Positions 10,637 to 58,735 are shown, counted from the stretch's first letter. The stretch: 64,000 nucleotides of DNA from a virus (IMGVR_UViG_3300028025_000089); one strand, 5' to 3'. Notes: generated by a model not told the origin, from the sequence alone. Numbers and translations are program-made.

Positions 10637-10643
10637 TATTTAT
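10637..10643 (+). promoter_or_regulatory. TATTTAT motif
   Basis: 12 nt upstream of the ATG at 10656. Confidence 0.55.
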
Positions 10644-10655
10644 AATAAAAAAACT

Positions 10656-13600
10656 ATGTCTGAAAGTTTTTTATCGTTTGGTAATTCGGAATTATTTAGA
10701 AAACAGTTGTTGGTAAGAAATTTACCACCATACAACGTTCCCGGTGCATATACTTCACCTGAGAACCCAGTAAATTATGAAACTAATTTAAGTGTTTATA
10801 ATGTTGTTGATTCACCAAATAATTTTGTATCAACAAATTTATTTGCAAACGATTTATATCCTTTAAACGAGTATGGACCTGAAGGTGGATTTACAGGTCC
10901 AATAGGTGTGAATGTGACACCTGTATTAAACCCAAATCAAGGACCGTATTATCCTAATAGTGGAACAATTTTAGATGTTGTTAATGAATTTTATATAGAG
11001 TCTGCTTATATAACAAATAAATGGGGACCTGCAGGTGGGTTTAAAGATTTAGTAATTATAACTGACTTATCATCAGTTCAAGGAATATATCAACCGTATT
11101 GGGATCCAGGGTATTTTAATTTTTCATCATACCCAACATTTAATATTGTATTCCAAGACGACCCGAATGGTTCAAATGGTTTATTATCACAAGATAGTTA
11201 TTTGGCTCAAATTGGAGCAACACAATTAAAGTTTGCATTTAACGAAAGAGTTGCTCAAGAAATTAATCAAGCAACTATTGGATCAATTAATTTAGACACT
11301 ATAACGGATCCATTCTCTGCTAGTTTATTGGCAACAGGTCAACAACCGTTCTTTATTAGAGATTGGAGAATTACTGTTCCTGAAAATCCTGCATTGGCTG
11401 CCGTTAGTTTGGCTAATAGATTAACAGGAACTTATTTTCCTGTATCATTTATTCCTGGCGATTATTTTGATGAAAATACACCATACACAAATCCACAACA
11501 AACTAGTAATGCGGTTAATACAATTAATAATTTAACAGGTGGTTTATTATCACCAATTTTAAATAAAACTAGAAACCCATCCGAAATATTTGTTGCAAAC
11601 ACGGGTAATGGAACGAGATCTGTATTATTTGCAACTTTAAATTACAACCAATATAGACCATCATATAATATAGGTTTAGTTCAAGGATTGTCTGCAATTG
11701 CAAACGCAATCGTTGATCAAGATTCGCCAGCATCAGGAACTTACTATGTTGGTAGTCCTAATGCCGAACCAAGTTTAATTGATTCTCCGCCAAATCAAGT
11801 TCCTGTTAATGATTTTGGAGAACAACAAGCAACCATAGTTTATGGTCCACAAGAGTTGGGTGTATTGTATGAAGGTAATATTGAACAAATAAAATTTGGT
11901 TTAGCGGGAAAATCTTATTCAGATGGTGGAGGAACATCAGGACAACTTGTATGGACATCACCAAAATACAAACCTAATGCCGGATTTAAAGCAACACCTG
12001 GTGGTGGATCAGGTTCTTTAGATGACGACTTTAATCAAATATCTGCTGACTACCTACAATATCAATCAACCGATATTGATTTTAAACCGGGATCAATTTT
12101 AGATCAAACACAACAATTAGTTAATTCTGGAGATTTAGTCCAAGGTCAGGCACGTTTAAAACATGTTGGAAATGCCATTAATCAAGTTTCCAAAGTGTTT
12201 AATGATGGTTATAAAGAATTAACAAAAGGATCAAGGGTATTATCATATGTAAACCAAACAGACGGGACAGAAGCCGGAATCGAATATTGTAGAGTATTCC
12301 AAAAAGATACACCGTATTATACATATAACGACCTTCAAAAAACAGACGGGATTACAACTTCAGGTAGAAGAATGGAATATTCAGTATTTGATAATACATA
12401 TAATTTGAATATTGCTCCAATTAGAAATCCTGGATCCACAAATATTGTTGATGGTCGAGTGAAAAAATACATGTTGTCGATTGAAAACTTGGCATGGAGA
12501 ACATCTGACAGACCAGGATTTACTTATGATGAATTACCTGTTTGTGAAAAAGGACCAAACGGTGGTAGAATTATGTGGTTTCCACCTTATAATTTAACTT
12601 ACACTGATAAACCAGCGGTTACTTTTAATTCTACTGATTTTTTAGGAAGACCTGAACCAATATATACTTATAAAAATTCATCAAGATCAGGATCGATAGG
12701 TTTTACAATTATTGTTGACCACCCTTCCGCGATGAATACAATAATAGAAAAACAACTACAAGGGGTTCAAAAAGAAAGAATCCAAAGTATTGTCGATTCA
12801 TTTTATGCTGGTTGTGTAAAATATGATTTATATGAATTGGCCGCGAAGTTTAACACTATACCAACAAAAGATTTATATACTTATCAAGAGATTTTAAATA
12901 ACCCAAGATTAACACAAGAAGAACAACTTCAGGTATTTGAAAGTATACCGGCCGATCAAACAGTGACCAATCAGGGTCAAACTCCGGCTGCCGATCCATT
13001 ACCAAATTCAACTGCCGCAGGAACTCAAACTGCGGAAAATCCACCACCAGACTTTAATTGGTCTCAATATGAAGGGTTAGGATTCTATTTTGAAAATGAC
13101 GTTCCTGGAGGACCTAACGGAACAAAACCTGGTGAAAACAAACAAGGTGGGACTTCAGCATCTAGTTTTGATGTTTATTATAATCAATATATTGGTTTAA
13201 AACCGGTTTATAATGAAAAGGCTCCGAAATACGTAAACTCGGATGGTAAGATATTTGAATCCGCGGGGATCCCTAATTTCTTTTCACAAGTTGTCGAAGG
13301 AAATTTCAATACAATCCAAACAGAACTAATCAAACAAATTGATGATGTTTTAGTAAAATATGAAAAAAGTGATATAACTATTGAAATGATAGGATCCGCA
13401 TCGGCTCCACAAGAAGAATCTTATAATAAAAAGTTATCTGAAAGAAGAAACGATTCGGTTAAAAAATGGTTTTCAAATGTGACTCTATCAAACGGAAAAA
13501 AAATATCGGAGTATGGTGAAAGATTTAAACTAATTTTAGTTCCACAAGGTGAAGTTACAGTAATTCCACAAACAAAAGCAATTGCATCAGGAACACCTGA

Positions 13601-15737
13601 AACAAATGATATAAGTGTATCAAACGCTCAAGGTGGTGATGTTTTATCTGCAAGTATCAATTGTAATGTTGATTCATTTGCTGTAACGCAAAATGGAACT
13701 AAAATACCTGATCAAACTTTTCCTAATGAGGCTCAATGGTATAGTATACCAGCTATGGCTTGTAGAAGGGTTGCGATTCAAAAAATTACGGCCGTTATTC
13801 AACCACAAGTACCGAAAATAGAAAACACAACAACAACTACGACTAATAACCCTCAGAACATTTTAACTGGTATAACTCAAAGTATTAAACCAGAACCTAA
13901 AATAACTATTGAACAAAAGTTAAAAGAAGGTATTTCTAAAAAGATTTTAAGGAATTTATTTTCAGAATGTGACTATTTTGAAGTGATAAAACAGACAGAT
14001 CCTATGATGTATGACAGCATCAAAGAACAGATCAAATATTTTAGTCCGGCATTTCACTCCATGACACCTGAAGGATTGAATAGTAGACTTACATTCTTAA
14101 ATCAATGTTCAAGACCTGGACAAACTATTCCTGTTATAGGTCCTGATGGAAGACCAAAATACAATGACGCACTAAACACTTCATTTGGTGCACCACCGAT
14201 ACTTGTAATTAGAGTTGGTGACTTTTATCATTGTAAAGCAGTTCCAACGACAATTTCATTAACTAATAAAACACCAATATTTGATATTAATCCAGAAGGT
14301 ATTGGATTACAACCAATGATGGTAGATGTTCAAATTGACTTTAATATAATTGGTGGTATGGGATTAAAAGGTCCTGTTGATGAAATACAAACGGCACTTT
14401 CTTTTAATTATTACGCAAACACTGAGATATATGACGAAAGAGCAACTGCAACAGATATTGAAAGCACAGAAAAAAATGACAAATATGTTATAGAACAAAT
14501 AAATGGTGGAGTTCCACCTGTTAGTCAACAACAACAAGCTCAAATTAATAGTGTTCAACCAAAAAAGGGAGGATCTACAGTGGGTCAAATACTAAGTGAT
14601 ACTGAAATAGATTATACCGGAATTTACGATTCCCTTCAATCTAAAACACAAGAGTATTTTAAAACTTACTTTGAAGCACTTCAAAAATTAAATGACAATT
14701 ATTCTTATGGTGCCGTTCAGTTGGGTATTAAGGATAGAAGTTATGTAAAAGGTAAAATAAGTGAATATACGAATGAAAAGAAAGATTTAGACTTATTTGG
14801 TAAAAGTAATACATATCAAGAATTAGTTGAAACACTTAAAGGTAGGATAAACAAAGATATAACCGAAGAAAAAGATCCAATCTATGACGGTTTACCAGGA
14901 GATGTTAAAAGTTCAATTACGGGAAAACAAAAAAGAGAATTTCAGGAAAGATTACAAACTTTAGTCAATAATCAACAGACAAAAATGTTAGACATTATTA
15001 ATAACAACATGTCAAACATTGTAAAAATTGAAGATGAGTTAAATTATATTTTTAGACAATTAGATGTGGTAGCATCTAAACTTGATGGAGAATTATTACA
15101 AAGTAATGAACCTAAACTATATGATTTAAGTGGAGATTCTTTTTTTAATATCACAACTAATTCTGGTTCGATATATAGTGTATATACAGAAAGTTTAAAA
15201 AACATTATTGATAGTTATAATTCATTACTATTAGAATTTAACATAACTAAAGATTTTTACAACAAATCTGAGTCAGTAATTAGTGACCAAAATAATTGTT
15301 CTTTTCAAATCATTGATGCAGGTAATAATTATTGGGTCAAATGTCCAAATAATAGATTTGGTATTTATATGACTCCAGAGTTTTTAAATCCAGATAGTTT
15401 TACAAAACTACAAAACTTTTTAACTGAAGGACCTGAAATTAAAACAAACCCAATAGTCGTAGAAGGTATAAAAAAATCTTGTGAAAAGTTTAAAGTGGAA
15501 TGTGTTAATTTTCAAGATTTAACTAAACAAAATTATTTTGATAAAGTTGTTGGTGATCAAAGATATGTTAGTGCAACTACTTGGAAGTTACCCGATAATA
15601 CAATTAAAAAATGTAATTACACAACAAACGTTACACAAGACGTTCAAACAAAAACTAAAAGAATTAAAGACTTATATTCAAATATAAACCTTAATAGTGA
15701 CAATAACACTTTTAATGGAAAAGTAACACTCAATTAA
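10656..15737 (+). CDS. Giant baseplate/tube-initiator-like protein (1693 aa) with an inserted OmpA-like domain
   Basis: FLGRPEPIYTY...R and PP.L.IRVGD...P.MVDV.IDF tube-initiator-like halves flank FYFEND...GSAS...YNKKLSERRN.SV...RRV; follows the tape measure. Confidence 0.65.
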   Translation: MSESFLSFGNSELFRKQLLVRNLPPYNVPGAYTSPENPVNYETNLSVYNVVDSPNNFVSTNLFANDLYPLNEYGPEGGFTGPIGVNVTPVLNPNQGPYYPNSGTILDVVNEFYIESAYITNKWGPAGGFKDLVIITDLSSVQGIYQPYWDPGYFNFSSYPTFNIVFQDDPNGSNGLLSQDSYLAQIGATQLKFAFNERVAQEINQATIGSINLDTITDPFSASLLATGQQPFFIRDWRITVPENPALAAVSLANRLTGTYFPVSFIPGDYFDENTPYTNPQQTSNAVNTINNLTGGLLSPILNKTRNPSEIFVANTGNGTRSVLFATLNYNQYRPSYNIGLVQGLSAIANAIVDQDSPASGTYYVGSPNAEPSLIDSPPNQVPVNDFGEQQATIVYGPQELGVLYEGNIEQIKFGLAGKSYSDGGGTSGQLVWTSPKYKPNAGFKATPGGGSGSLDDDFNQISADYLQYQSTDIDFKPGSILDQTQQLVNSGDLVQGQARLKHVGNAINQVSKVFNDGYKELTKGSRVLSYVNQTDGTEAGIEYCRVFQKDTPYYTYNDLQKTDGITTSGRRMEYSVFDNTYNLNIAPIRNPGSTNIVDGRVKKYMLSIENLAWRTSDRPGFTYDELPVCEKGPNGGRIMWFPPYNLTYTDKPAVTFNSTDFLGRPEPIYTYKNSSRSGSIGFTIIVDHPSAMNTIIEKQLQGVQKERIQSIVDSFYAGCVKYDLYELAAKFNTIPTKDLYTYQEILNNPRLTQEEQLQVFESIPADQTVTNQGQTPAADPLPNSTAAGTQTAENPPPDFNWSQYEGLGFYFENDVPGGPNGTKPGENKQGGTSASSFDVYYNQYIGLKPVYNEKAPKYVNSDGKIFESAGIPNFFSQVVEGNFNTIQTELIKQIDDVLVKYEKSDITIEMIGSASAPQEESYNKKLSERRNDSVKKWFSNVTLSNGKKISEYGERFKLILVPQGEVTVIPQTKAIASGTPETNDISVSNAQGGDVLSASINCNVDSFAVTQNGTKIPDQTFPNEAQWYSIPAMACRRVAIQKITAVIQPQVPKIENTTTTTTNNPQNILTGITQSIKPEPKITIEQKLKEGISKKILRNLFSECDYFEVIKQTDPMMYDSIKEQIKYFSPAFHSMTPEGLNSRLTFLNQCSRPGQTIPVIGPDGRPKYNDALNTSFGAPPILVIRVGDFYHCKAVPTTISLTNKTPIFDINPEGIGLQPMMVDVQIDFNIIGGMGLKGPVDEIQTALSFNYYANTEIYDERATATDIESTEKNDKYVIEQINGGVPPVSQQQQAQINSVQPKKGGSTVGQILSDTEIDYTGIYDSLQSKTQEYFKTYFEALQKLNDNYSYGAVQLGIKDRSYVKGKISEYTNEKKDLDLFGKSNTYQELVETLKGRINKDITEEKDPIYDGLPGDVKSSITGKQKREFQERLQTLVNNQQTKMLDIINNNMSNIVKIEDELNYIFRQLDVVASKLDGELLQSNEPKLYDLSGDSFFNITTNSGSIYSVYTESLKNIIDSYNSLLLEFNITKDFYNKSESVISDQNNCSFQIIDAGNNYWVKCPNNRFGIYMTPEFLNPDSFTKLQNFLTEGPEIKTNPIVVEGIKKSCEKFKVECVNFQDLTKQNYFDKVVGDQRYVSATTWKLPDNTIKKCNYTTNVTQDVQTKTKRIKDLYSNINLNSDNNTFNGKVTLN

Positions 15738-35096: not shown

Positions 35097-35103
35097 TATT
35101 TAT
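35097..35103 (+). promoter_or_regulatory. TATTTAT motif
   Basis: 18 nt upstream of the ATG at 35122. Confidence 0.55.
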
Positions 35104-44538: not shown

Positions 44539-44545
44539 TATTTAT
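44539..44545 (+). promoter_or_regulatory. TATTTAT motif
   Basis: 20 nt upstream of the ATG at 44566. Confidence 0.55.
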
Positions 44546-45471: not shown

Positions 45472-48458
45472 TGGCAACAAATAAATTTACTTGTCCACCT
45501 CAAAGTAGTGCCGCTAACGAGTTCTCAAACAATTTAGTCGGAGTTCAACTTGTTACTGGTGGTGGTTTAACGCAAGCAAATTTTAATTTTACCACAGGTA
45601 TATCTGAAAAACAAAACAGGACTTTTAACATAGGGACTTTTTCAGACCCAATTAATTTAGAGTCTATTAATATAGAAAGTCAGGCTGAGGCTAATATTAT
45701 ATTAGCAAACAACTACAGGGTTTATCCGAATTATGATTTATCACAAGTTACAAATTTTACCCAATACGGGTCTTTAGTTAAAAGACTTTCAACTTCAATT
45801 ACAAAAATTATTAACTACTTTCCTGCGGGATTGGAGGTTAATTCAACAAACCCATCATTTATAACACAAGAAACCGCATTCAACATTACATTTGATTCGG
45901 TTGAAAATGACACAACATTTGAGGTTTATTTATCATCAATTCAAAACCCATTTGAAATTGATTATTCGGTTAATAGCGATATTAATATGCGTTTTAACGA
46001 AATGGATGTGTCACCATTAAGAAACATGACAAGGGAGTTCAAAAAATATGTCTTGTATGTAAATGGTAATCAATATCCTGTAAATTATTTATATCCTACT
46101 GATAGTTCATCGACAACACTAAAACTTATTGTTGATGGTGATCCGTTTAGTGGGGCGACAATATCTTTTGATTACTTAGTGATTAGACCAAGTGATTATG
46201 AAACAAATAAAGTTTTTAATTTAGATTTTGATCCTGTTGAAAACTTTTTATTAAACAGACAAATAACACCGGCTTACACCGCGCAATTTATTGTTCCAAG
46301 AGAACAAGAAGATGGGACGGTTTCGGTTACAAAAGAAACCGCGACTTGGCCAAGAGCTGGGTTATGGAATATTGATATAACATCAGTTTCGTTTGATAAT
46401 TATTTAACAAAAATTAATGACTTTGCAATTAATTTGGATCAGTATCAAACAAACATATTATCAAGGTTTTTAACGACAGGAGCATTAAAAGAATTCGATA
46501 CACCAGATCAAAGGTTTGAAAAATTACTTCAAATTTATGGAAGAAGTTTTGATGAAACAAAAACATTTATAAGTGCTTTAGGTAATATTAATAGTGTTCA
46601 CTACACGGTCAAAAATGATATACCTTCACAATTACTTAAAAATTTAGCACAGACATTAGGTTGGGTTACAAACTTTTCACCAATATCACAAGAAGAGTTA
46701 TTACAAGCGGTATTCACAACTCAACCAAATACTTTCCCTGGTCTTCAAATTGGACCAACACCTGAAGAAGTTAATTATCAATTTTATAGAAATATAATTG
46801 TAAATTCAGCATACCTTTTCAAATCAAAAGGGACAAGAAAATCTATTGAGGCTCTTTTAAGAATGATTGGAGCACCTGACGCTTTAATTGATTTTCAAGA
46901 ATATGTTTATGTTGCTGATCAACGAATTAATATGAGCGAGTTTAATCAACAATATGCTCAAATTAGTTTAGGAACTTTAACAACTCAAATACCGGTTTTA
47001 GACACCGCAGATGTATTTTCAATTCAAGGAATTCAATATACAGGATTTACAACAACATCAACAAACACAAACGTGTTGACTACAAGAAATGATTATCCTG
47101 TTGATGAATTTGGTTGTCCAAAAATGCCAACAGCGACCGAAACATATTTCTTTCAAATTGGTGGAGGTTGGTTTGAATCAACACCACAACACAGAATGCC
47201 CGAGTTTGCAATTCCAACAAATCAGGTATTCACAGGAAATAACCCAAATTATCAAACACAAATACTTCCATTTAATTATGGAGAAGAGTATCTACAAAGA
47301 TATAGACAATTTCCATATATGGATATGGGTTATGTGTTACGAAGAGTTTCAGATAATAAGAAAAGTTGGGTTGATACAAACCCAACATTAAGAACAAGTT
47401 TCGAAGGAAACTTTAACGCATACTATGAAGTTGGTGAAGAATGTTTAGTGTTGAATGTTAAAAACGTTGATATAATGTTAAACCCTGGTCAAGGATTATC
47501 ATATGACGTGTGGTATATGTCTAATCAGTATAATTTCCCAATACCAGAACAAGGTTTGTTTTATACACCACCATCACCTTGTAGTATTCCTAACCCATAT
47601 CCTAAATTAGGTGGGGTGGATTGGACAACAATAGTTCCAAAACCAAAACAAAAAACTTTCTTTGAGTTTGCGCAGACCTTTTGGAGAAATATGATTAACA
47701 CCCGAAATCGTCAATTTATTACTGATGGAAAAACTGGGGGTTACCCAACATTACAATCAATTTATTGGAGATATTTAGAATCACAAAAATTGGCAGGAGT
47801 TCCAAACAATAACTATACATACCAAACGATGATTGATTTTGTTAATGGTATGGGTGATTATTGGATTCAGTTTATAGAACAAATGGTTCCGGCAACCACA
47901 ATTTGGAACACAGGGGTTAGATTAGAAAATTCAATATTTCATAGACAAAAGTTTGTATGGAGAAGACAAGAAGGTTGTAAAATACTTCCTGTTCCTTGTA
48001 AACCATGTAGTCTTACAACACAACTTTATGTTTACGATTGTCCTGTTCAAAGTGTAACATGCGGGTTATATCCTTGGACGACAGATCCAAACACAACATC
48101 ATTTGGTGTGGTATTAAACCAAACACTCCAAGACTATTTTACATCACAAGGTATTAACCCTGGTCAGTGTCAATTGAATTCAACAGTTTCAAATTGGTTT
48201 GTTGATATAAGAGTTAATGGATTACTTATTACTCAATATGGTTTCTTTACAGGAATCGGAACTTCAGGTTATCCATCAAGTTCACAATGGTTACAAGGAT
48301 TGCAAGAAGCTTTGGATGGTTTACTAACAAGTGGTTATAGTTATAATATTGATGAAGATACAAATGAATTAGTGGTCTTTAATAATAATTGTTTACCAAA
48401 CTTTGATGACTTTGAATTGAATGTTGGAATAAACTTTGAAACTTACTGTAACGCATAA
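45471..48458 (+). CDS. Baseplate wedge protein with a gpI/gp7-like core (995 aa)
   Basis: LLKNLAQTLGW...YRNIIVNSAYLFKSKGTRKSIEALLRMIG matches the tail-protein-I KGT motif. Confidence 0.7.
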   Translation: MATNKFTCPPQSSAANEFSNNLVGVQLVTGGGLTQANFNFTTGISEKQNRTFNIGTFSDPINLESINIESQAEANIILANNYRVYPNYDLSQVTNFTQYGSLVKRLSTSITKIINYFPAGLEVNSTNPSFITQETAFNITFDSVENDTTFEVYLSSIQNPFEIDYSVNSDINMRFNEMDVSPLRNMTREFKKYVLYVNGNQYPVNYLYPTDSSSTTLKLIVDGDPFSGATISFDYLVIRPSDYETNKVFNLDFDPVENFLLNRQITPAYTAQFIVPREQEDGTVSVTKETATWPRAGLWNIDITSVSFDNYLTKINDFAINLDQYQTNILSRFLTTGALKEFDTPDQRFEKLLQIYGRSFDETKTFISALGNINSVHYTVKNDIPSQLLKNLAQTLGWVTNFSPISQEELLQAVFTTQPNTFPGLQIGPTPEEVNYQFYRNIIVNSAYLFKSKGTRKSIEALLRMIGAPDALIDFQEYVYVADQRINMSEFNQQYAQISLGTLTTQIPVLDTADVFSIQGIQYTGFTTTSTNTNVLTTRNDYPVDEFGCPKMPTATETYFFQIGGGWFESTPQHRMPEFAIPTNQVFTGNNPNYQTQILPFNYGEEYLQRYRQFPYMDMGYVLRRVSDNKKSWVDTNPTLRTSFEGNFNAYYEVGEECLVLNVKNVDIMLNPGQGLSYDVWYMSNQYNFPIPEQGLFYTPPSPCSIPNPYPKLGGVDWTTIVPKPKQKTFFEFAQTFWRNMINTRNRQFITDGKTGGYPTLQSIYWRYLESQKLAGVPNNNYTYQTMIDFVNGMGDYWIQFIEQMVPATTIWNTGVRLENSIFHRQKFVWRRQEGCKILPVPCKPCSLTTQLYVYDCPVQSVTCGLYPWTTDPNTTSFGVVLNQTLQDYFTSQGINPGQCQLNSTVSNWFVDIRVNGLLITQYGFFTGIGTSGYPSSSQWLQGLQEALDGLLTSGYSYNIDEDTNELVVFNNNCLPNFDDFELNVGINFETYCNA

Positions 48459-50644
48459 TGAGTATAACAATTTATAATTATAGTGTAACTGGTGATTGTA
48501 GTAATACGGGGTCAGGAGCATTTTCATTTGACATTACAGGAACAACACCTCCTTTTGCCGTAACGTGTATTAGTTCAGGTTGTAGTTTACCAACCTCAGC
48601 AACCACAACTTCTTATGGTGTTTCAGGAATTACCGCTGACACATATTTTTTACAAGTCGTTGATGGATCGTCAAATAATTACGTTCAGGCTGTTTATATA
48701 TCATCAGGAACAACCGCAACGATTGATTCTGAAAATACAACGTGTGGGTTGAGTAATGGATCTATTACAGGATATACTTCAGGTGTTTATAATATTGCAA
48801 CATTTAGTTTGTATGATGGACTTAACAATTTAGTCACCTCATCACAAGTTTCGAATAATTATTATAATTTCACATCTCTTTCTGCTGGAACATATTATAT
48901 AGTTGCTGATGATGGTGGTGGTTGCACAGGAATCACAGCCTCAGTAATTGTTACACCATCAACAGGTTTTACTTTTGGTGGTTATGTTGTTGATGACGCA
49001 AGTTGTAACGGAGTTGGAAGTGGAAAAATATTTCTTACAGGTTTAACATTACCTTCATCCGCATATACAATAAATTGGTCACCAAATGTTAATGGACAAA
49101 CAGGAACAACTGTTACAGGTTTAACGGGGGGAACTTATATAGTCACAGTAACAGATCCTATTAATTGTTCTAATACACAATCATTTAATGTTCAAGCCGT
49201 TGATCCTTTGGGTTCAGGTGGTTTTATTACTATATCACAACCAACTTGTTTTGCTAATGACGGTGAAGTTGAATTTATTGTGACAGGAGGAACTCCTCCA
49301 TATTTCTTTAGCGGTTCGTCAGGTCAAGTTGATGTTACGTTTGCATCATCAGTAACATTTACTGGTTTATCATCGGGTATTTATTCGTTTTTAGTTACAG
49401 ATGCAGGACTATGCACCATATACGATTCGGTTTCAATGTTGACACCAAACTCATTCACTACGGTTGCGGTTAACACAACACCATCTTTTTGTTCTCAAAA
49501 CTCGGGATCTATTCAGGTTATAGTTGATAATGGATTGAGCACAGAACCAAGTTTATTAATTTCAATATCAGGAACAAGCGGAACACAACAAGTTGGAAGT
49601 TTAGGAAACCCAACTCAAACATTCAACGGACTTCCAAATGGGACTTATTTAATCACCGTTCAATCAACAAGTTGCACTTATACCGCAACAACTAATATAA
49701 CTTCTGTTGATTTATTTACGGTTACAGCATCAACAACAGGAACAACTTGTGGTGGTAATAATGGTATTTTAGATGTTGTAGTTTCAACAGGAGGAACATT
49801 ACCATACATATTTACTCTTACGGGACCAACTTATAGTCCTGTAACCACAACAACTTTTTTATCTACATTTACAAATCTTAAATATGGTAATTATACCTTG
49901 ACAGTTCAAGATTCAGGATCACCGAGTTGTAGTCAAACCTATAATGTTTATATTGATGATAGTCAAAATGTATTTTTTAATTTAATACCATCACAACCAA
50001 TTACAGGAAATGATGGGGCAATTACCACATATATTCTATCGGGAGTTCCGACCTTCAATCTAACATGGAGTAGTAATGTTAATGGTCAAACAGGATCAAC
50101 TGTGACAGGACTAACGGCAGGGACTTATACTTTGACGGTTGTTGATAGTGAAGATTGTTCCTTGACAAAATCAATTACATTAACGGGAACTAAAAAATAT
50201 AGTGATTACAGATACTATAATATTTGTGATAATACATTTGCAGACACGGGAACGGTAACCAAAAGAAGTATGAGAGCAATGTATTTGGAAGGTTTTTCTG
50301 ATCTTACAAGTGGGGATACAAATTGTATTATAAACGAAGCAACGTTTTCGATATATGCACAAGTTGGATCACAATCCGCTCAAACACAATTCTACACTTC
50401 AAGTGGATCAACCGATTACCCAACAGATGTTTTGTGGGCTCAAACGATTGTTGAAACCTTAGATTCATTTGTAGGTATTTCAGGAACTACCGTCGACATA
50501 GTATCAAATAGAATAACAATAACCACAACATGTGAAGACATACCAAAAGGGTGTGAAATAGTCCCTTTGAATCCATTACAAGATAATGAGATTATTGTTA
50601 AGTTAGTTATTGATTATGATATATCTTGTGTAAGCTGTAGTTAA
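48458..50644 (+). CDS. SprB-repeat adhesin-like tail fibre/appendage protein
   Basis: Repeated C...NG.I.v..tGGT.PY and W..NGQTG.TVTGLT.GTY.vTV.D..C units. Confidence 0.75.
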   Translation: MSITIYNYSVTGDCSNTGSGAFSFDITGTTPPFAVTCISSGCSLPTSATTTSYGVSGITADTYFLQVVDGSSNNYVQAVYISSGTTATIDSENTTCGLSNGSITGYTSGVYNIATFSLYDGLNNLVTSSQVSNNYYNFTSLSAGTYYIVADDGGGCTGITASVIVTPSTGFTFGGYVVDDASCNGVGSGKIFLTGLTLPSSAYTINWSPNVNGQTGTTVTGLTGGTYIVTVTDPINCSNTQSFNVQAVDPLGSGGFITISQPTCFANDGEVEFIVTGGTPPYFFSGSSGQVDVTFASSVTFTGLSSGIYSFLVTDAGLCTIYDSVSMLTPNSFTTVAVNTTPSFCSQNSGSIQVIVDNGLSTEPSLLISISGTSGTQQVGSLGNPTQTFNGLPNGTYLITVQSTSCTYTATTNITSVDLFTVTASTTGTTCGGNNGILDVVVSTGGTLPYIFTLTGPTYSPVTTTTFLSTFTNLKYGNYTLTVQDSGSPSCSQTYNVYIDDSQNVFFNLIPSQPITGNDGAITTYILSGVPTFNLTWSSNVNGQTGSTVTGLTAGTYTLTVVDSEDCSLTKSITLTGTKKYSDYRYYNICDNTFADTGTVTKRSMRAMYLEGFSDLTSGDTNCIINEATFSIYAQVGSQSAQTQFYTSSGSTDYPTDVLWAQTIVETLDSFVGISGTTVDIVSNRITITTTCEDIPKGCEIVPLNPLQDNEIIVKLVIDYDISCVSCS

Positions 50645-50647
50645 TTT

Positions 50648-50872
50648 ATGTCAAACCAAATAACAATAACTTCTGTTACAGGATTAACAACCCCATTTAG
50701 TGGATACTGTTGTGACGTATATGGAAATCAATGTTCATTTGTTGGAGTGATTAGTAGTTTACCAACAACAATAACTTTACCAAATCAGTTTAACACCGCT
50801 CCTGCGATAGGTTTAAAACTTAATGATGGTGCTGGATGTGAAACTTTAGAAACAATTTACTGTTCTTCATAA
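50648..50872 (+). CDS. Small Cys-containing beta-sandwich protein, paralogue of 58737..58955
   Basis: QITITSVTGLTTPF..Y.CD.....C...I aligns by eye with QITISSLSGLSPF.VY.CD.....C...I. Confidence 0.7.
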   Translation: MSNQITITSVTGLTTPFSGYCCDVYGNQCSFVGVISSLPTTITLPNQFNTAPAIGLKLNDGAGCETLETIYCSS

Positions 50873-50906: not shown

Positions 50907-51887
50907 ATGGAAAAAATTTTATTTGTCACCGCACAACCTGACGTGCCATATTTTATTTGGCAAATCAAACTATACGTTCATAATTTCATAGAGAAAGGAA
51001 TTAACCCAAATCAAATCCACGTTATTTTTAGTTTACAAAATGAAAATAATGAACCGTCAAGAGAATCTTTACAGTTGAAAGATCTTGGGATTAATGTTCA
51101 TCACTTTGTTGATGAAAGGGTTAAAAAACATTATATACCATCAATAAAACCATTTTTAATTTCAAAGTGGATTCAAAAAAATCCTAAATACGGTGAGTTA
51201 TTTTTTCTTCACGATTCAGATATTATTTTTAACGAACTACCGAGTTTTGATCGGTTATTGAATGATGAGGTTTGTTACATGTCAGATACGATTGGATATA
51301 TTGGATATAACTACATTATGGATTGTTGTAAAAGATATGAAAGTCAAAACCCAACTTCTGAGAAAGGACAACTCATTTCTGAAATGGCAAATGTTGTTGG
51401 AGTTGATGTTGACACAATTAAACAAAATCAAAAAAATTCAGGAGGAGGTCAATACCTTTTTAAAAACACAAATTGTGAATTATGGGATAAAATGTATAAA
51501 GACTCAATAAAATTATACGATCAAATGTTAGATTATCAAAAACGTTTTCCGATCAATCCAGGTCAAATACAATTTTGGACCGCAGAAATGTGGGCAGTGT
51601 TGTGGAATCTTTGGTTATATGAATACGAAACAAAAATAATTTCAGATCTTGATTTTTCATGGGCTACTGACACCATTGAGATTTATAATTCAAAAAACAT
51701 ATTACACATGGCAGGTGTCACAGATGATCTAAAAACTACAAAATTCTATAAAGGTGATTATATTAATATTGACCCCATTTTGAAATTAAAGGAGGATGAA
51801 AACTTTTTTAATTACATAGATAAAAACAGTTCGACAATTAAATACATCGAAAACATGAAATCATATATAAAAAAATACGAAAATTGA
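50907..51887 (+). CDS. GT-A glycosyltransferase resembling peptide O-glycosyltransferases (GT96 SGT1 / GT95 HPAT-like)
   Basis: YFIWQ, YIPSIKPFLISKWI, LHDSDII (DxD), GYIG, SGGG and WTAEMW occur in the same order as recalled plant SGT1 motifs YFDWQ, YPAINKP...W, LDADMII, GYL.G, VGG, WISEMY. Confidence 0.65.
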   Translation: MEKILFVTAQPDVPYFIWQIKLYVHNFIEKGINPNQIHVIFSLQNENNEPSRESLQLKDLGINVHHFVDERVKKHYIPSIKPFLISKWIQKNPKYGELFFLHDSDIIFNELPSFDRLLNDEVCYMSDTIGYIGYNYIMDCCKRYESQNPTSEKGQLISEMANVVGVDVDTIKQNQKNSGGGQYLFKNTNCELWDKMYKDSIKLYDQMLDYQKRFPINPGQIQFWTAEMWAVLWNLWLYEYETKIISDLDFSWATDTIEIYNSKNILHMAGVTDDLKTTKFYKGDYINIDPILKLKEDENFFNYIDKNSSTIKYIENMKSYIKKYEN

Positions 51888-51888
51888 T

Positions 51889-51895
51889 TATTTAT
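51889..51895 (+). promoter_or_regulatory. TATTTAT motif
   Basis: 8 nt upstream of the ATG at 51904. Confidence 0.55.
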
Positions 51896-51903
51896 AATAT
51901 TAT

Positions 51904-53976
51904 ATGATTGAAAACTGTTATATACTATATTCTTGTGATGGAGGTTACCAACCGATCATTTCTAATTACAGTGGATTAAGCGCTTATTCTGAAAGTTACG
52001 TATCCATTAACATTATTGATTTGGGTGAAACTCCTGACACTTGTTTTTATGTTTTAAGTTTAGGTGAAATAGAATGTGATATAACCTATGATATTGACAT
52101 AAACACAGGAACAACATGTTCTTGTCAGTGTTATTGTTATTTTATAAGAAGTTTAGAAACAAATGTTGATGTGACTTATGTAGATTGTAATGATCTTATT
52201 GTTGTTGAAACATTACAAGAAGGACAAACATATAATATTTGTAGTAAAGTATTTCCTCAATTTGATGGAGAATCTCAAATACCAATTAAAATAACGGATA
52301 TTTGTCAAAACAACCAATGTCCTCCAACAATACCAACAGTAAAACCACCTAACGAATGTGATGTTATTACAATATTTCCAATGGACGTTGAGTGTATTGT
52401 TCAAAACCCATCCAACGACAGATCTTTTGATGGGGCTGCGACATTAGCAATTACAGGAGGAACACCACCTTATACCATATTTTGGGAAATCGGAAGTTTT
52501 GCTCCAGCCCTTAATAATTTAGGTGTTGGTGAGTATTCAGCAACTGTGACTGATTACTATGGTGATTTTACTGCGAACACCACTTGTGTTTTAACGGCAG
52601 AAACATTAACCATATCTGGTATGTGTTTTGTTATGACGGGAATTACAGGTGAAGTTTTAACTTATATTTCAGCCGAAAGTCTTGGACTTAAAAACGGAAA
52701 ACCATATTATGAAATACAATATTTGGGTGAAACGTATGGTTATGTATTTTGGAATACAGAATATGAAACTTGGTATTTTTGTCAAACATTAGATTGTCAA
52801 AATATAAGCCCATATAACACTTATACAGGAACAACTTATTATCCTTCAGGTGCTACAGGTGATTGGGTTATTGAATCTGATACACAATATCAAATAATTG
52901 AATCTTATGTTGGTCCATGTCAAATACCTGCAATTGTTAAAGGAGACACCAATCTTTGTGTTACGTTAATTATAAATACAGGAAATTCAGACTCACCAAC
53001 AGATACTTTAAATATTGGATTAGACCCAAGTAATGAAATTAATGGACAACCAAGTTGGTCATCATCAACGGGACAATATGTGATTTATTGGAATACAGGA
53101 TCAACACCTAATCAATGGGTTATGACGGGATATACTAATCCATATGTTACATTAACAAACAATGATCCATCAGATCCACCTATTAGTAATTGGGTTGTTA
53201 ATGGTGAACCTGAAGTTTTAGAAATGTTTGTTTTGACTGGTGATTGTTCCACTGGTTATACAATAAATGTCAATGCTGCAATAAATGATGCCTTATGTGA
53301 AGAAACGGGAAGTATAACACTAACCGCAAGTGGAGGTATTGCACCATACGAATATTCTGTTGATGGGATTAATTTTCAACCATCCCCAATATTCAACGGA
53401 CTAACACCGGGGTCTTATATAGTTTATGCGAAAGATTCATTAAATAATATTGGGTTATATTCACCTGTTGTGATAAATAATACACCACCTGTATCATATT
53501 CAGTCGTGTTGAATGTAAACTATAGCACGGGATTATTTACTATAACGGCACCTACTTTACCTGCAGGTGTTACAATAGATCTTAATTTGGTGATGACTTC
53601 AACGTTTAGTTATTACCCAACAACACTTTCACCACAACCAACTTATAATAATTTTACAACAATTATTGGAACAGGACTTATGACTTTGACAAATACTATG
53701 TTAAATATAACTCCGTTGACAGGTCCTTGTGTTAGAACAGGTTCTATTGGAGTTGCACAAACAACAAATACTTATACAAATACAATTACTTTGGTGAGTA
53801 ATCAAGTTGTTAGTGGAACAACCACAAATAACATTATCAATGACCCAACTGGAAATTGTAAAAATGCTATTGGTTCATATAACTTAACAATGACAAACCC
53901 TACGATAAATAATTGTCAGTGTTGTTCGGTATTTCTTCTTAACCCAAGATTAAACCCAGCACCTCCAATTACATAA
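51904..53976 (+). CDS. Cys-rich SprB-repeat adhesin-like virion protein (690 aa)
   Basis: DGAATLAITGGTPPYTIFW...GEYSATVTD and C..TGSITL.ASGG.APYEYS.DG..FQ.SP.F.GL.PGSY.VY.KD repeats. Confidence 0.72.
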   Translation: MIENCYILYSCDGGYQPIISNYSGLSAYSESYVSINIIDLGETPDTCFYVLSLGEIECDITYDIDINTGTTCSCQCYCYFIRSLETNVDVTYVDCNDLIVVETLQEGQTYNICSKVFPQFDGESQIPIKITDICQNNQCPPTIPTVKPPNECDVITIFPMDVECIVQNPSNDRSFDGAATLAITGGTPPYTIFWEIGSFAPALNNLGVGEYSATVTDYYGDFTANTTCVLTAETLTISGMCFVMTGITGEVLTYISAESLGLKNGKPYYEIQYLGETYGYVFWNTEYETWYFCQTLDCQNISPYNTYTGTTYYPSGATGDWVIESDTQYQIIESYVGPCQIPAIVKGDTNLCVTLIINTGNSDSPTDTLNIGLDPSNEINGQPSWSSSTGQYVIYWNTGSTPNQWVMTGYTNPYVTLTNNDPSDPPISNWVVNGEPEVLEMFVLTGDCSTGYTINVNAAINDALCEETGSITLTASGGIAPYEYSVDGINFQPSPIFNGLTPGSYIVYAKDSLNNIGLYSPVVINNTPPVSYSVVLNVNYSTGLFTITAPTLPAGVTIDLNLVMTSTFSYYPTTLSPQPTYNNFTTIIGTGLMTLTNTMLNITPLTGPCVRTGSIGVAQTTNTYTNTITLVSNQVVSGTTTNNIINDPTGNCKNAIGSYNLTMTNPTINNCQCCSVFLLNPRLNPAPPIT

Positions 53977-53990
53977 AATTAAAAGAATAA

Positions 53991-53997
53991 TATTTAT
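53991..53997 (+). promoter_or_regulatory. TATTTAT motif
   Basis: 6 nt upstream of the ATG at 54004. Confidence 0.55.
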
Positions 53998-54003
53998 TCA
54001 ATA

Positions 54004-56523
54004 ATGGCCTACATAATTAAAAATACATCAGGTTTGGTTAACACCCGAGTTACTGACACGGGAAGACAAAGATTGTCTGAAGGTAGATTCAATATCACAT
54101 ATTTTGCTATTGGTGATAGTGAAATATCTTATAATCAATTACCCAACACTTATAACCAATCAAACACCGTTGTATTGGAACCTCAATTTAATGCTCAAAA
54201 TAGTTCAGGCGTTCCTGAATCAAATAGACAATATATTAAATATCCTTATTTGGTTGATGAAGGTCAAACAAACCTTTATGGTATTCCATTTATGGATTCG
54301 CAAATTGAATCTGTTTATAATAGAGCTGCAATGAGAGGATTTTTTACAGGAAACACAACAGCGTCAACTGTAAATTGGAAGGCTCTTGTTAATAATTCAT
54401 ATGTTGTGACACCAAATTATGTTGTTAATATGTCAACGTTAAATGGGTCAAATGAAATCAACGTATATCGATTAGATTGTAATAGTCAAAATAATAATAC
54501 ACCACAAGTTGGTGATTTTATTACAATATATTATGATGGGTTTGCAAAAAATGATTGTTCTTGTTCTAATTTCCCGACACCAACACCATCGGCATCGGTA
54601 GGACAAACACCAACACCTACACCAACTCCATCGGCAACATTATCAAACCCTTGTGCGTCACCAACACCGACACCAAGCCCAACTCAAACACCTTGTATAT
54701 CACCTACACCAAGTGCTCAATGTCCTTTACCACCACCACCTGATTGTTTGAAAAATGTTAATTCTTGTTTTTCAATATTAACATATAGAATCGTTGCGGT
54801 ATGTAATGATAAATTAACATTAGATAGACCAACACCCGACTTTACCAATCTTTCAAGTGATTGTATTGCAAGAACATTAATATATCCACCACAAATGGTT
54901 CCTTTGTATGATAGTTTTACACCTGAACCGCATTGGGCTCAAAGTGTTATTGATTTTGAATCAGTTTGTGATACGGATCAATTTGATGTTAAAATTTGGA
55001 ACATGAATATTCCGTGGACTGAAAGTCCGGCAGGTTTATTGCCATCACAATACCAAGACTATACCAAATTTGGATCAATTAATTATATCGGTCAAAAAGA
55101 ATACTTTGGTTATACAACAAGTGCTCAAACATCTACAGACGATGTTTATTATTATAACTCTTTTGGTGAAAAACAAGTTGTGACACCGCAAGATCAAAAG
55201 GCTATTGCAATTATTCATTATACTAATCAAACAATAGATTTCTTTTATGGTGAAAAATTTGCTTTAGAACCATATGACACACAAAACCCTGAAAACACAC
55301 AAGGTCAAGCAAGAAACTTTAAGTTACACATGCCAACAATAATGTGGCATAAAAACCCTGAATGTTGTTTTGGTCAAACATTCTATGTTGATCCTCCAGG
55401 GTTCGAAGGTAAAAACTTGTTTACAGTTCAATATACAAAATCAAATATTTCGTCCAACATGAATAAACCTGGATTGAGATATTATAATTTATGGGACACA
55501 TTTGCACAACCAAATGGACTTCCAAGTAGAATTGGAAAAGTATATCCTGATTCTAAAATGATAATAATAGATGACGAAGAATTGGTTGCTGCACTTTCAT
55601 ATAAGTCAAATCGAAATTGGACTTTACCGGCACCTCAAGTTTCGTTATTAACACCAAACACTTGTGGTGTTTCTAATACTACAGGAGTTTTAACTGGTGG
55701 CAGTGAAACAATGTGGGTGACTTATAGATTAACAAACACTAATTACTTTACTAATTCATTACATTGTAATTACTATGTGAACGTAGTTGGAACTGAAAAT
55801 GTTTGTTCACCTGAAACACCAAAAAATGTTGCGGTTAGATTCGGAGGAGATTTCCCTTGTTTAGTTCAACCAGGTTTTACACCAACAACCACAACCACAA
55901 CAATTCCTTTTACAACAACCACAACTACAAGTCCATTAACAACAACTACAACTACAAGTCCATTAATTACAACCACAACAACTATTTGTCCAACTTGTGT
56001 TGTTCCTGCAGGTTTTTACGCGACTGAATTCCAAGTATTAGCTCAAAGAGTTCCTACGGGACAAAGACCAACCCCTGAAAGTTGGAAGATGATTGATTTT
56101 ACACAACAAATAAGTAGTTTATTTATTAATGGATATGTAACACAAGAATCATTAACGGCAACAACATTTACAATTACTGCTGAAAATTATGACAGCGCTC
56201 CATTCTACAATCTAAATGATTATGTTACACTTGTTCCTAATGGTGCGACAGGTCAACAATTAAACTTTGGTGATGAATATTATTTCTATGGAAATTTAGA
56301 GACAGATATTCAAGCAACGATCTACGAAATGAAATATAAGATAAACTTGAATTCTTCTGAATTTTTGGTGTCTCAAAACCCAACATGGACAAAAGGGACT
56401 CAATCTTATGTTACGGAAATTGCGTTATTAGATGAAAATGAAGATATTCTTGTTATGTCAAAATTACAATCACCTGTTTTACGACAAGGAATACAACAAT
56501 ACGTGGTAAAATTAGATTTCTAA
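54004..56523 (+). CDS. Tail-collar/fibre-attachment-like protein with mucin-like insertions (839 aa)
   Basis: N-terminal TDTGRQRL...ITYFAIGD and C-terminal VTEIALLD...LV.SKL..P....VKLDF resemble the tail-collar fold; (TP)n and poly-T tracts lie between them. Confidence 0.62.
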   Translation: MAYIIKNTSGLVNTRVTDTGRQRLSEGRFNITYFAIGDSEISYNQLPNTYNQSNTVVLEPQFNAQNSSGVPESNRQYIKYPYLVDEGQTNLYGIPFMDSQIESVYNRAAMRGFFTGNTTASTVNWKALVNNSYVVTPNYVVNMSTLNGSNEINVYRLDCNSQNNNTPQVGDFITIYYDGFAKNDCSCSNFPTPTPSASVGQTPTPTPTPSATLSNPCASPTPTPSPTQTPCISPTPSAQCPLPPPPDCLKNVNSCFSILTYRIVAVCNDKLTLDRPTPDFTNLSSDCIARTLIYPPQMVPLYDSFTPEPHWAQSVIDFESVCDTDQFDVKIWNMNIPWTESPAGLLPSQYQDYTKFGSINYIGQKEYFGYTTSAQTSTDDVYYYNSFGEKQVVTPQDQKAIAIIHYTNQTIDFFYGEKFALEPYDTQNPENTQGQARNFKLHMPTIMWHKNPECCFGQTFYVDPPGFEGKNLFTVQYTKSNISSNMNKPGLRYYNLWDTFAQPNGLPSRIGKVYPDSKMIIIDDEELVAALSYKSNRNWTLPAPQVSLLTPNTCGVSNTTGVLTGGSETMWVTYRLTNTNYFTNSLHCNYYVNVVGTENVCSPETPKNVAVRFGGDFPCLVQPGFTPTTTTTTIPFTTTTTTSPLTTTTTTSPLITTTTTICPTCVVPAGFYATEFQVLAQRVPTGQRPTPESWKMIDFTQQISSLFINGYVTQESLTATTFTITAENYDSAPFYNLNDYVTLVPNGATGQQLNFGDEYYFYGNLETDIQATIYEMKYKINLNSSEFLVSQNPTWTKGTQSYVTEIALLDENEDILVMSKLQSPVLRQGIQQYVVKLDF
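54574..54741 (+). repeat. (Thr-Pro)n extensin-like tract
   Basis: PTPTPSASVGQTPTPTPTPSATLSNPCASPTPTPSPTQTPCISPTPSAQCPLPPPP. Confidence 0.9.
55879..55998 (+). repeat. Poly-Thr tandem repeat
   Basis: TPTTTTTTIPFTTTTTTSPLTTTTTTSPLITTTTTICPTC. Confidence 0.9.
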
Positions 56524-56580: not shown

Positions 56581-57189
56581 ATGGCAAAAAATCTGAAAAA
56601 CACACCAAAAGTCTTGGGACTTGATATATCAACCAAAACAATTGGTTGGGCGTTATTCGACATCCAAACTCAAGAGTTATTAGAACTTACCCATGTTTCA
56701 CCAAGACCTAAAATGGATAAAGATGACGATGATAAATTAAAAGAGTTATTACTTAAATCAGAAATTTTTTCAGAGAAGTTAAAACAATATAAAAATCTTG
56801 GAATTGTAAGAATCGTAATTGAAGAGCCTTTATTAAATTCTAACAATGTATATACAATTCAAACCCTATTAAGATTTAATAGTTTTGTTTTCAAAGAGAT
56901 ATACAACATATTTGGAATTGTTCCCGAATTTATTTCAACATACAATTCAAGAAAGTTTGCATTTCCCGAATTAGTCCAAGAAAACGATAAAAAGAAACAC
57001 GTTCTATTTGGAGGTCTTCCAAAAGATGTGGATAAGAAAATGATAATTTGGGAAAAGGTTGCAAAAAGAGAACCTCAAATCAAATGGTTATATACCAAAA
57101 ATAATACACTTAAAAAGGAAAACTTTGACCAAACTGATGCTTATACTTGTGCGTTAGGTTTTATGAGGTCTAAAGGTATTTGGGAATAA
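56581..57189 (+). CDS. ruvC: RuvC-like Holliday junction resolvase
   Basis: VLGLDIST..IGW, IVIEEP, D.TDAY acidic motifs. Confidence 0.85.
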   Translation: MAKNLKNTPKVLGLDISTKTIGWALFDIQTQELLELTHVSPRPKMDKDDDDKLKELLLKSEIFSEKLKQYKNLGIVRIVIEEPLLNSNNVYTIQTLLRFNSFVFKEIYNIFGIVPEFISTYNSRKFAFPELVQENDKKKHVLFGGLPKDVDKKMIIWEKVAKREPQIKWLYTKNNTLKKENFDQTDAYTCALGFMRSKGIWE

Positions 57190-57214
57190 TATTGTATAAT
57201 ATATTGATAATTTG

Positions 57215-57246
57215 AAATATCGTCTTTTTAGACGATATTTTTTTTT
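57215..57246 (+). terminator. Terminator between convergent genes (possibly bidirectional)
   Basis: AAATATCGTC-TTTTTA-GACGATATTT plus a T-run. Confidence 0.8.
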
Positions 57247-58735
57247 AACAAGAAAATCCTGTATTTGTTATTAGAGTGTTTTGAGGGTTGTTGGATACTG
57301 GTGTTGTTGATGAACACAAATAAATTGAAGTATTTGGATTCATAGATATTGAAGAAGGACCATTTTCACAACTAAAATAAGATATTGATATTTTAGATGG
57401 ACTGTCATTAACAATCGAATATTCAAACTGAACACATGGTGTAGGACTTGGAGTCGGTGTTGGTGTTTGAGTTGGAGTTTGTGTTGGAGTTTGTGTTAAT
57501 TCAGGAACGCAGTTTAAACAAGCGCCATCTGTAGTTGATCCTATTTCTGTTAATAACTGAATTGTATCCACACCACTTATATTTTCAAATAACCCATCAT
57601 AAATAACACAATATCCTTGTCCGTTAATTATTGCGTTATATACATAACCTTCTTTTGGTGATGTAGTTCCTGAAACCAAAACCAAATCTGATGTAAAATA
57701 TTGAATACCTGTAAAGCAATCTCTGAATTTTTTACTATTTGCACATTGTATAATTTCAGAAAATGTATTAAATATAACTTCACCCGAAAAATTGCAAGGT
57801 CTATCAACTTGTGGTGTTGGAGTTGGTGTCGGTGTAAACGAAGGCGTTGGAGTTGGTGATATACCTAATTTTGAAACTACCATTGATACACCACCACAAA
57901 TTGCCGAACTTGTCGGTGTCATTGTTGGTGTGGGGGTTGGTGTTTTTGGTGGTGTTGTAGAAGGTGTTGGTGGTATATAACAATCAAAAACCGCTTCCAA
58001 ATCTAACGTAGAACAAGGATTAATTGTTGTTGTAGTTGTTGTGCATGGACCAAAATAAAGAACACTATCATCTAAATCAGGACAAGAGGATGCGCTACCA
58101 TATGGTCCGAATTGATCACAAGGATCACCAAGATTTTGAGCTAAACACCATCTTGTTTCACCTGTAGAGTAATAAATCACAAAACTTGTAGATTCACCTG
58201 TATAATATGATTGACCATCAAAAGTTCCTGCAATTTCATATGTGTCGTCGTATGTTGTATCATTTTGAATACAAAATGTTCCTGTGCAAGTGCAGGCAGA
58301 TATACCTAATATTTCACCAGCACTATCAACATCATAAACATCAACACCGTCAGAATAGTAAGAAATTAATGCTGTAGTTGTGCAAGCAGAATCTGTGTAT
58401 ACAATAGACCCAATGTTTAAATCAGAACCATACAAGATATAATCTAATGGTGATAAACAAGAAAGTTCAGGATCTGAAGCCGATGAAAAATTTCCTAAAA
58501 AATTACAAGAACAACCTGAAACTCCGGTAATTTCTCCCGAACCATTTGTTGAATATAAATTAGACCCGTTACTCAAATATATTGATGCTAAAGGCATCGT
58601 GCAACCTGAATCAATATACATCTCTTCACCAATTACCAAACTATCTCCGTATACCGTAGTTGTAAGTGCAGATAAACACAAATCCAAACTAGCGGATGTG
58701 TCAAGAGCAAATAAACCTAAATCATTACAAGCCAT
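57245..58735 (-). CDS. Cys-rich, Thr/Pro-rich (mucin-like) multidomain virion-type protein (496 aa)
   Basis: Two tandem ~73-aa Cys repeats (LG.F...C...YG..L.IG...Y.DS.CT...YSDG...GEI.G.S.C.C) plus four T/TP tracts. Confidence 0.8.
   Translation of the reverse strand: MACNDLGLFALDTSASLDLCLSALTTTVYGDSLVIGEEMYIDSGCTMPLASIYLSNGSNLYSTNGSGEITGVSGCSCNFLGNFSSASDPELSCLSPLDYILYGSDLNIGSIVYTDSACTTTALISYYSDGVDVYDVDSAGEILGISACTCTGTFCIQNDTTYDDTYEIAGTFDGQSYYTGESTSFVIYYSTGETRWCLAQNLGDPCDQFGPYGSASSCPDLDDSVLYFGPCTTTTTTINPCSTLDLEAVFDCYIPPTPSTTPPKTPTPTPTMTPTSSAICGGVSMVVSKLGISPTPTPSFTPTPTPTPQVDRPCNFSGEVIFNTFSEIIQCANSKKFRDCFTGIQYFTSDLVLVSGTTSPKEGYVYNAIINGQGYCVIYDGLFENISGVDTIQLLTEIGSTTDGACLNCVPELTQTPTQTPTQTPTPTPSPTPCVQFEYSIVNDSPSKISISYFSCENGPSSISMNPNTSIYLCSSTTPVSNNPQNTLITNTGFSC

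Follow-up and report, generated by a model that had tools for sequence, protein, structure and literature searches.

Virus-encoded glycosylation of virions is already known from two kinds of virus. In mycobacteriophages, according to the accounts of Freeman et al. (2023, Cell Host Microbe; PMID 37329881) given in PMC12619734 and PMC10877033, phage glycosyltransferases modify the C-termini of the capsid and tail-tube proteins, and the glycans on the virion affect antibody recognition. Virion glycosylation is also known from chloroviruses, in which A64R of Paramecium bursaria chlorella virus 1 (PBCV-1; PDB 2p6w) is a glycosyltransferase of the major capsid protein. Here we describe a gene of another family, at positions 50907–51887 of a 64,000-nucleotide (nt) stretch of viral DNA (IMGVR_UViG_3300028025_000089, hereafter the window), which comes from a lineage of very large ‘jumbo’ phages and belongs to an uncultured member. 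The encoded protein of 326 amino acids (aa) has the predicted fold of a glycosyltransferase and lies among genes for tail and fibre-like proteins that carry short runs of threonine (poly-Thr tracts) or of alternating Thr and Pro, (TP)n. We propose that this enzyme probably O-glycosylates the poly-Thr tracts of the phage’s own structural proteins and thereby decorates the tail.

The system resembles that of the mycobacteriophages in having a phage glycosyltransferase inside or beside the structural module, as is the case in the window and in eight GenBank phages that we opened. As far as the accounts cited above describe them, the C-terminal sites of the mycobacteriophage proteins also match the positions of poly-Thr tags, that is, tracts close to the C-terminus, which we found in siphophages carrying relatives of the window’s enzyme. 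The enzyme family differs, since there is no Mycobacterium phage among the 77 GenBank records in which we detected it, and the hosts here are Bacillota and Bacteroidota. A cassette of poly-Thr tag and enzyme is likewise not described in those accounts of the mycobacteriophage system, and the tracts of the window are internal to sheath and fibre-like proteins. The chlorovirus enzyme A64R is a weaker structural match (13% identity), belongs to a eukaryotic virus and functions without any poly-Thr tag logic. The serine-rich-repeat adhesins of Gram-positive bacteria, which are glycosylated in the cytoplasm, offer a bacterial parallel in GlyE, which acts on PsrP of Streptococcus pneumoniae (PDB 5gvv) and is 14% identical to the phage protein. 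What is new in the present case is the enzyme family, its fold-level kinship to plant enzymes of families GT95 and GT96, the logic of tag and cassette, and the range of hosts. GlyE extends a glycan begun by another enzyme.

The enzyme and its structural relatives

The gene begins with ATG, lies on the plus strand like all features below unless stated otherwise, and is open throughout. Its product matches the profile of PHROG 4417, annotated as ‘unknown function’, with an E-value of 3.7e-68 over residues 6–319 (profile positions 3–290 of 293). A Pfam scan of the 326-aa protein returned nothing even at E 10, and sequence searches of the PDB with both the protein and the family profile as queries returned nothing significant. 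The family is a large one, with 1323 clusters at 90% identity and 833 at 50%, nearly all of them unnamed.

We modeled the protein with AlphaFold2 (AF2) using the family alignment, which gave a mean predicted local distance difference test score (pLDDT) of 97.5 and a predicted template modeling score (pTM) of 0.94. The model has the hallmarks of a GT-A glycosyltransferase, with a single Rossmann-like alpha/beta/alpha domain, a DxD motif after the central strand and a His toward the C-terminus. The motif, D103-S-D105 in the context FLHDSDIIF (51213–51221, with D103 at nt 51213–51215 and D105 at nt 51219–51221), follows strand 98–101 and is the presumed metal and nucleotide-sugar site, a role assigned from GT-A enzymes generally. 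His267 (ILHMAGV; 51705–51707) lies on strand 265–267 and presumably acts as the third metal ligand. When 52 family representatives, each 29–53% identical to the window’s protein, were aligned, D105 proved invariant, as did His267 and nine further residues, and D103 was at least 90% conserved. Neither a hydrophobic segment nor a signal peptide was found in the 326 aa (maximum Kyte–Doolittle 19-residue mean, 0.86) and the first beta-strand of the model begins at residue 5, from which we conclude that the enzyme is a soluble cytoplasmic protein. The original prediction for this DNA, made from the sequence alone, had named a DxD enzyme embedded among adhesin-type genes, and this description was borne out: the open reading frame (ORF) is intact, the DxD is conserved, and SprB-type and Thr-rich genes lie on either side.

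The same prediction had likened the enzyme to plant extensin glycosyltransferases, and at the level of fold the likeness holds. Among 550,129 AlphaFold models of Swiss-Prot entries the top fold was Arabidopsis SGT1 (Q8VYF9; E 1.6e-10, template modeling score (TM) 0.62), with a structural alignment of 305 columns covering query residues 3–293 at 15% identity, both structures being predicted ones. Seven HPAT, RDN, PLENTY and NOD3 entries came next (TM 0.59–0.62; E no higher than 3.6e-8), and the GT8 galactinol synthases ranked lower, at 0.44–0.51. In the AlphaFold clusters, the commonest named matches after three members of the protein’s own family were algal and protist proteins with an ‘HPAT-like domain’. 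Foldseek comparison with solved structures returned the GT-A enzymes WbbM, GfsA, UGGT, GT6, glycogenin and XXYLT1; the closest of the solved folds belong to GT-A enzymes of the retaining type whose acceptors are proteins or glycans. At the level of sequence, the Pfam HPAT family (PF23452) weakly matched 2 of the 52 relatives (best E 1.3e-4), being the only family to match more than one of them, and 10% of one Atlas cluster; when searched directly on five family-carrying records, it gave no match. Membership in GT95 or GT96 is not established by these results, and the kinship is one of predicted fold.

The plant and algal enzymes in question, SGT1/SERGT1 (GT96) and HPAT1–3, RDN1/2, PLENTY and NOD3 (GT95), are also GT-A enzymes, which place the first sugar onto hydroxyls, and their substrates are repetitive Pro/Ser-rich structural proteins. 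They are membrane-anchored enzymes of the secretory pathway, whereas the phage enzyme is predicted to be soluble and unanchored, and its likely acceptor is Thr rather than the Ser or hydroxyproline (Hyp) of the plant families. Within the phage enzyme’s own family, some members are fused to other domains that act on or bind sugars, namely the Skp1-type GlcNAc transferase domain (PF11397), O-FucT, GT6 and the sugar-binding F5/8 type C domain, or to a methyltransferase (representatives P0156, P0148, P0169, P0227 and P0243). Many other representatives, of about 500–580 aa, bear a C-terminal extension of about 250 aa, and the eight of these that we scanned had no Pfam match there.

Joint inheritance of enzyme and poly-Thr tags

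Of 50,697 GenBank phage records searched by tblastn, 77 contained the family, with identities of 32–36%; these are phages of Enterococcus, Lactobacillus, Staphylococcus, Lactococcus, Clostridium, Chryseobacterium and Arcanobacterium. The enzyme gene lay within the structural module in every record that we opened. It directly follows a tail-tube or major structural gene in phages phiFL1A, SA2, Iacchus, phiCTP1 and 1706, and directly follows the capsid gene in nattely, R3.3 and 4995_1. Nearby structural proteins end in poly-Thr tags located 1–12 residues from the C-terminus, including the tail tube and capsid of phiFL1A, the portal, head protein and tail tube of phiCTP1, and the capsid and tail tube of R3.3. 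In Lactococcus phage 1706, orf10 (capsid/protease) and orf13 (major structural protein) both end in T9–10 followed by HHD (L290:6971–9028 and 9738–10475); the depositors of this genome labeled the neighbors as structural and not the enzyme itself, which fits an enzyme rather than a part of the virion. The pairing extends to more distant members of the family, as the gene immediately before the enzyme in Chryseobacterium phage MA9V-3 encodes an internal T-rich tract, and three metagenomic contigs with very divergent representatives show the same arrangement, one of them with a poly-Ser/Thr tract. Altogether, a Thr-rich or Ser/Thr-rich neighbor was present in all twelve contexts examined beyond the co-variation sets described below. 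Two further observations concern tags in these phages. In phage 1706 the putative holin orf3 (L290:964–1365) also ends in a T7 tag, and in Staphylococcus phage SA2 an annotated 87-aa ORF with 45% Thr (L003:5661–5924) runs in a different frame across the end of the gene for the major tail protein, so that a frameshift could possibly extend this protein by a long poly-Thr stretch.

We examined whether enzyme and tag vary together in two groups of enterococcal phage relatives. The first set comprised 27 IMG/VR loci with relatives of the phiFL1A tail tube at 65–100% identity. All 12 loci with the enzyme had tags on both tail tube and capsid, and none of the 15 loci without it was tagged. On the tree of the tail-tube domain these states imply four joint changes, of which well-supported branches require at least two, and in no case do enzyme and tag part company. 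The body of the tail tube ends at the same conserved residues throughout the set, after which comes either a short plain tail or T6-x-x-T7 together with the enzyme gene. In the second set of 80 loci, with relatives of the capsid protein of Enterococcus faecium phage 4995_1, enzyme and tag occurred together in 69 of 69 loci, and the seven enzyme-less loci, which form one clade at 84–85% identity, were untagged; in a further 4 tagged loci the contig ended less than 200 bp from the capsid gene, so that the enzyme could not be assessed. A query with the nattely tail tube returned five loci, too few for an assessment of co-variation. The same T6-K-P-T7-Q-A tag, followed by a near-identical enzyme N-terminus, occurs on a tail-tube gene (L095:10001–10630) and on a capsid gene (L293:8001–9161), which suggests that tag and enzyme move between structural genes as one cassette. 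The original prediction would have failed had the glycosyltransferase proved uncorrelated with T/P tracts, and in these two enterococcal groups the two were concordant in every assessable locus.

We also approached the association from the side of the tract, by scanning IMG/VR for (ACN)9, fetching 80 loci and searching 55 records whole. An in-frame tract of T8 or longer was present in 58 of the fetched loci, six of which hold the enzyme, always abutting the poly-Thr ORF. The family was found in 8 of the 55 whole records, all 8 with in-frame poly-Thr, and in none of 10 out-of-frame controls, a rate about 100 times the GenBank base rate (77/50,697).

These patterns bear on the possibility that the acceptor is not a protein at all but lipopolysaccharide (LPS), capsule, teichoic acid or the phage DNA, with the Thr/Pro tracts serving as unrelated flexible linkers. 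We consider this unlikely. Enzyme and poly-Thr tags are gained and lost jointly, as a cassette at the 3′ ends of capsid and tail-tube genes, and the gene resides in late structural operons, including those of temperate phages of 36–39 kb, rather than in moron or lysogeny regions. As for DNA, glucosyltransferases of the T4 type, which are GT-B enzymes, were absent from the fold matches, and gene context and fold class alike speak against a DNA-modifying role.

Thr tracts and transcription in the jumbo phage lineage

In the window, replication genes of T4-like type (gp32, UvsX, a 5′–3′ exonuclease, DnaB, ribonucleotide reductase, primase and RuvC) occur alongside genes for a sheath, a baseplate and SprB-repeat fibres. 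No DnaB of a GenBank phage exceeds 29% identity to that of the window, whose relatives come from metagenomes, as contigs that reach 318 kb. Its SprB repeats suggest a host of the Bacteroidota type. The aquatic ‘moraphages’ described in 2025 reach 307 kb, have predicted Bacteroidota hosts and include four glycosyltransferase orthogroups in their core genome (PMC12619734).

Four proteins of the window contain Thr or TP tracts where the original prediction had placed them, and we regard these as candidate acceptors. The tail sheath (2996–6331; 1111 aa), identified by a match to phrog_23 (E 1e-51 over residues 896–1109), has its poly-Thr tracts at 3866–3961, in the non-conserved N-terminal part. 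A 1693-aa protein without an informative family match (10656–15737) carries a T6 at 13827–13844. An 839-aa protein (54004–56523) has (TP)n at 54574–54714 and three T6 units at 55879–55983; its AF2 model is poor (pLDDT 48), and the tracts fall in low-confidence stretches. A 496-aa protein rich in Thr, Ser, Pro and Cys, encoded on the minus strand (57245–58735) and without a family match, carries T6 and (TP)n tracts at 57437–57466, 57812–57973 and 58025–58042. Thr codons are mixed within the tracts, so the tracts are kept at the level of protein and are not plain DNA repeats. As controls, we counted tracts of T5 or longer in other sequence, where they proved rare: unrelated viral loci totaling 181 kb contained 2, and enzyme-less relatives totaling 248 kb contained 0.

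Relatives of the window retain this arrangement. Thr or TP tracts occur within 10 kb of the enzyme in 77 of 80 related loci, the three exceptions being truncated, and 86 related loci encode an orthologue of the 839-aa protein at a distance of about 3 kb downstream from the enzyme gene. Both tract regions of that protein are kept across 40 orthologues at 57–93% identity. Among 304 distinct T tracts tallied from relatives of the window (loci L006–L085 and L236–L285), the modal length is 6; 154 are exactly T6 and 288 are T5–T7. The residues after a tract usually read x-[C/N/S]-P (NPC, LCP, ICP), and SPL, YSP or FSP commonly stand before it; the narrow length together with these flanks may define a recognition unit.

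The lineage also carries other genes for glycan synthesis. Near-complete relatives have 5–8 GT2 glycosyltransferases per genome, clustered, and 3 of 5 have a short-chain dehydrogenase/reductase (SDR) sugar epimerase/dehydratase (for example, G002:C1:166177–166902), from which we conclude that the lineage invests heavily in glycan synthesis. In relatives of 273–291 kb such clusters lie at G002:C1:158660–170324 and 258639–262486 and at G064:C1:218992–220652. The suggestion that the pathway might parallel the glycosylation of Hyp in plant extensins, were a prolyl 4-hydroxylase encoded elsewhere in the genome, was not upheld: searches for PF13640 and PF03171, which between them took in eight related contigs of 152–318 kb, four of them 93–100% complete, gave no match. 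We therefore rejected a Hyp-glycosylation pathway, having found no prolyl 4-hydroxylase in the relatives searched.

The neighbors of the enzyme gene provide a view of its likely expression. Upstream lie a 728-aa Thr/Ser-rich protein resembling a fibre or adhesin (48458–50644; 16.9% T, 12.8% S), which scored 26.2 bits against Pfam SprB, below the cut-off of 28, and 28.3 bits against Y_Y_Y (cut-off 26.6), and then a 74-aa Cys-rich ORF with six Cys and no family match (50648–50872). Directly downstream is a 690-aa SprB-repeat protein (51904–53976; Pfam SprB E 1.1e-11, 13.3% T). In the window, 13 ORFs have the motif TATTTAT 11–52 nt ahead of their start (copies include those at 2954–2960, 10637–10643, 35097–35103, 44539–44545, 51889–51895 and 53991–53997), though the motif’s total of 27 occurrences is near the chance expectation of 23.8 from composition. 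The ORFs that it precedes are mostly structural, with DnaB at 27860 also among them, and TATTTAT is plausibly a late-promoter element of this phage lineage.

The original prediction had noted that the enzyme gene lacks this motif while its neighbors have it, and had taken this to mean that the enzyme may be made earlier than its substrates. The first part stands, since no TATTTAT lies upstream of the enzyme gene and the next two genes have the copies at 51889–51895 and 53991–53997, but the second does not. The three genes directly before the enzyme (starting at 45471, 48458 and 50648) also lack the motif, the enzyme gene starts only 34 nt after the preceding ORF, and no intergenic terminator was found between 44566 and 57189. 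Because of the short gap and the absence of a terminator in between, the enzyme is probably co-transcribed from the TATTTAT at 44539–44545, the likely promoter of the unit, 27 nt upstream of the ORF starting at 44566. Early expression of the enzyme was accordingly rejected, as the gene has neither a promoter-like site of its own nor a terminator upstream. Within this region a single intergenic terminator is convincing. It is a stem-loop of 12 bp at 57214–57241, flanked by runs of T and A, which separates the convergent ORFs 56581–57189 (plus strand) and 57245–58735 (minus strand) and probably acts in both directions.

Given that the tracts of the window differ in position from those of the siphophages, the enzyme could be a protein O-glycosyltransferase whose targets in the jumbo phages are other sites on the virion or host proteins, the tracts being interdomain linkers. 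Here the tracts are internal rather than C-terminal tags, and nothing like the (TP)n tracts occurs in the tags of the Gram-positive phages. A structure prediction that paired the enzyme with the T6 stretch of its 839-aa neighbor was neutral as to binding. However, the tract lengths of the lineage agree with the T5–T10 units of the Gram-positive tags, and in six metagenomic loci unrelated to the window the gene directly adjoining that of the enzyme encodes a large protein whose poly-Thr is internal. We judge this explanation, too, to be improbable.

Proposed function and its implications

The fold, the conserved residues of active-site type, the placement in structural operons, and the strict co-inheritance of the family with poly-Thr tags elsewhere among phages are the firm elements of our proposal; we infer which acceptor and donor are used, that the chemistry is retaining, when the enzyme acts and what the glycan does. 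The protein would be a metal-dependent cytoplasmic GT-A enzyme, probably of the retaining type, that moves a sugar from a nucleotide-sugar to the Thr hydroxyls of short tracts, typically T6, late in infection. Its acceptors would be the sheath and the 839-aa, 496-aa and 1693-aa proteins, and perhaps the neighboring Thr-rich fibre proteins. The original prediction had included the (TP)n tracts among the acceptors; our evidence concerns the poly-Thr tracts, and TP could be an acceptor only possibly. Glycosylation before or during assembly would yield a glycan-decorated tail, the first sugar may be extended by the lineage’s other glycosyltransferases, and the glycan might serve in shielding, stability or adhesion.

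Several observations weigh against this proposal. Among solved structures, GT8 enzymes that build LPS or other glycans (LgtC) score equally with protein-modifying ones, and the likeness to SGT1 and HPAT is one of fold, at 13–15% identity, in a protein without a Pfam match. The co-variation comes from Gram-positive siphophages with C-terminal tags, whereas the tracts of the jumbo phages are internal linkers, and a profile-based search for further loci returned the same jumbo lineage only, without enzyme-less relatives. Thr/Pro linkers are common in fibre proteins that have no such enzyme. Furthermore, at least four complete or near-complete viral contigs (G035, G056, G057 and G060) have poly-Thr but not the family, and because of such contigs the link between tag and enzyme is one-directional: other enzymes, or plain linkers, also exist. 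Finally, a literature search found no paper on the family or on poly-Thr tags, and the glycan on the virions is a prediction.

A last alternative, that the protein has ceased to be an enzyme and instead binds poly-Thr tags in virion assembly or as a decoration protein, would also predict the co-variation with tags, but is very improbable given the invariant D105 and H267 and a D103 conserved in at least 90% of representatives, a pattern typical of a conserved active site, the fusion of relatives to other glycosyltransferase domains, and the absence of a structural annotation for the phage 1706 protein.

We thus return to O-glycosylation of the poly-Thr tracts as the probable function. With somewhat less assurance, we lean toward a broader picture in which poly-Thr tag and HPAT/SGT1-like enzyme form a mobile module, the tag being added to the ends or linkers of virion proteins, for a widespread O-glycan coating of capsids, tail tubes, sheaths and fibres among phages of Bacillota and Bacteroidota, a counterpart, and possibly an evolutionary relative, of the extensin enzymes of plants and algae. 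If true, O-glycosylation of virions would be common; the family occurs in enterococcal, staphylococcal, lactococcal, lactobacillal and clostridial phages as well as the aquatic jumbo phages with Bacteroidota-type hosts. This would bear on phage therapy with enterococcal and staphylococcal phages, through immune clearance and stability, on the biology of dairy phages, and on how disordered C-terminal tails are read in cryo-electron microscopy and proteomics. Glycoengineering would gain a portable pair, a tag of about T6–T7 and a single soluble enzyme. Lastly, a large PHROG of ‘unknown function’ would acquire a function, and one that links it to the GT95 and GT96 enzymes of plants.

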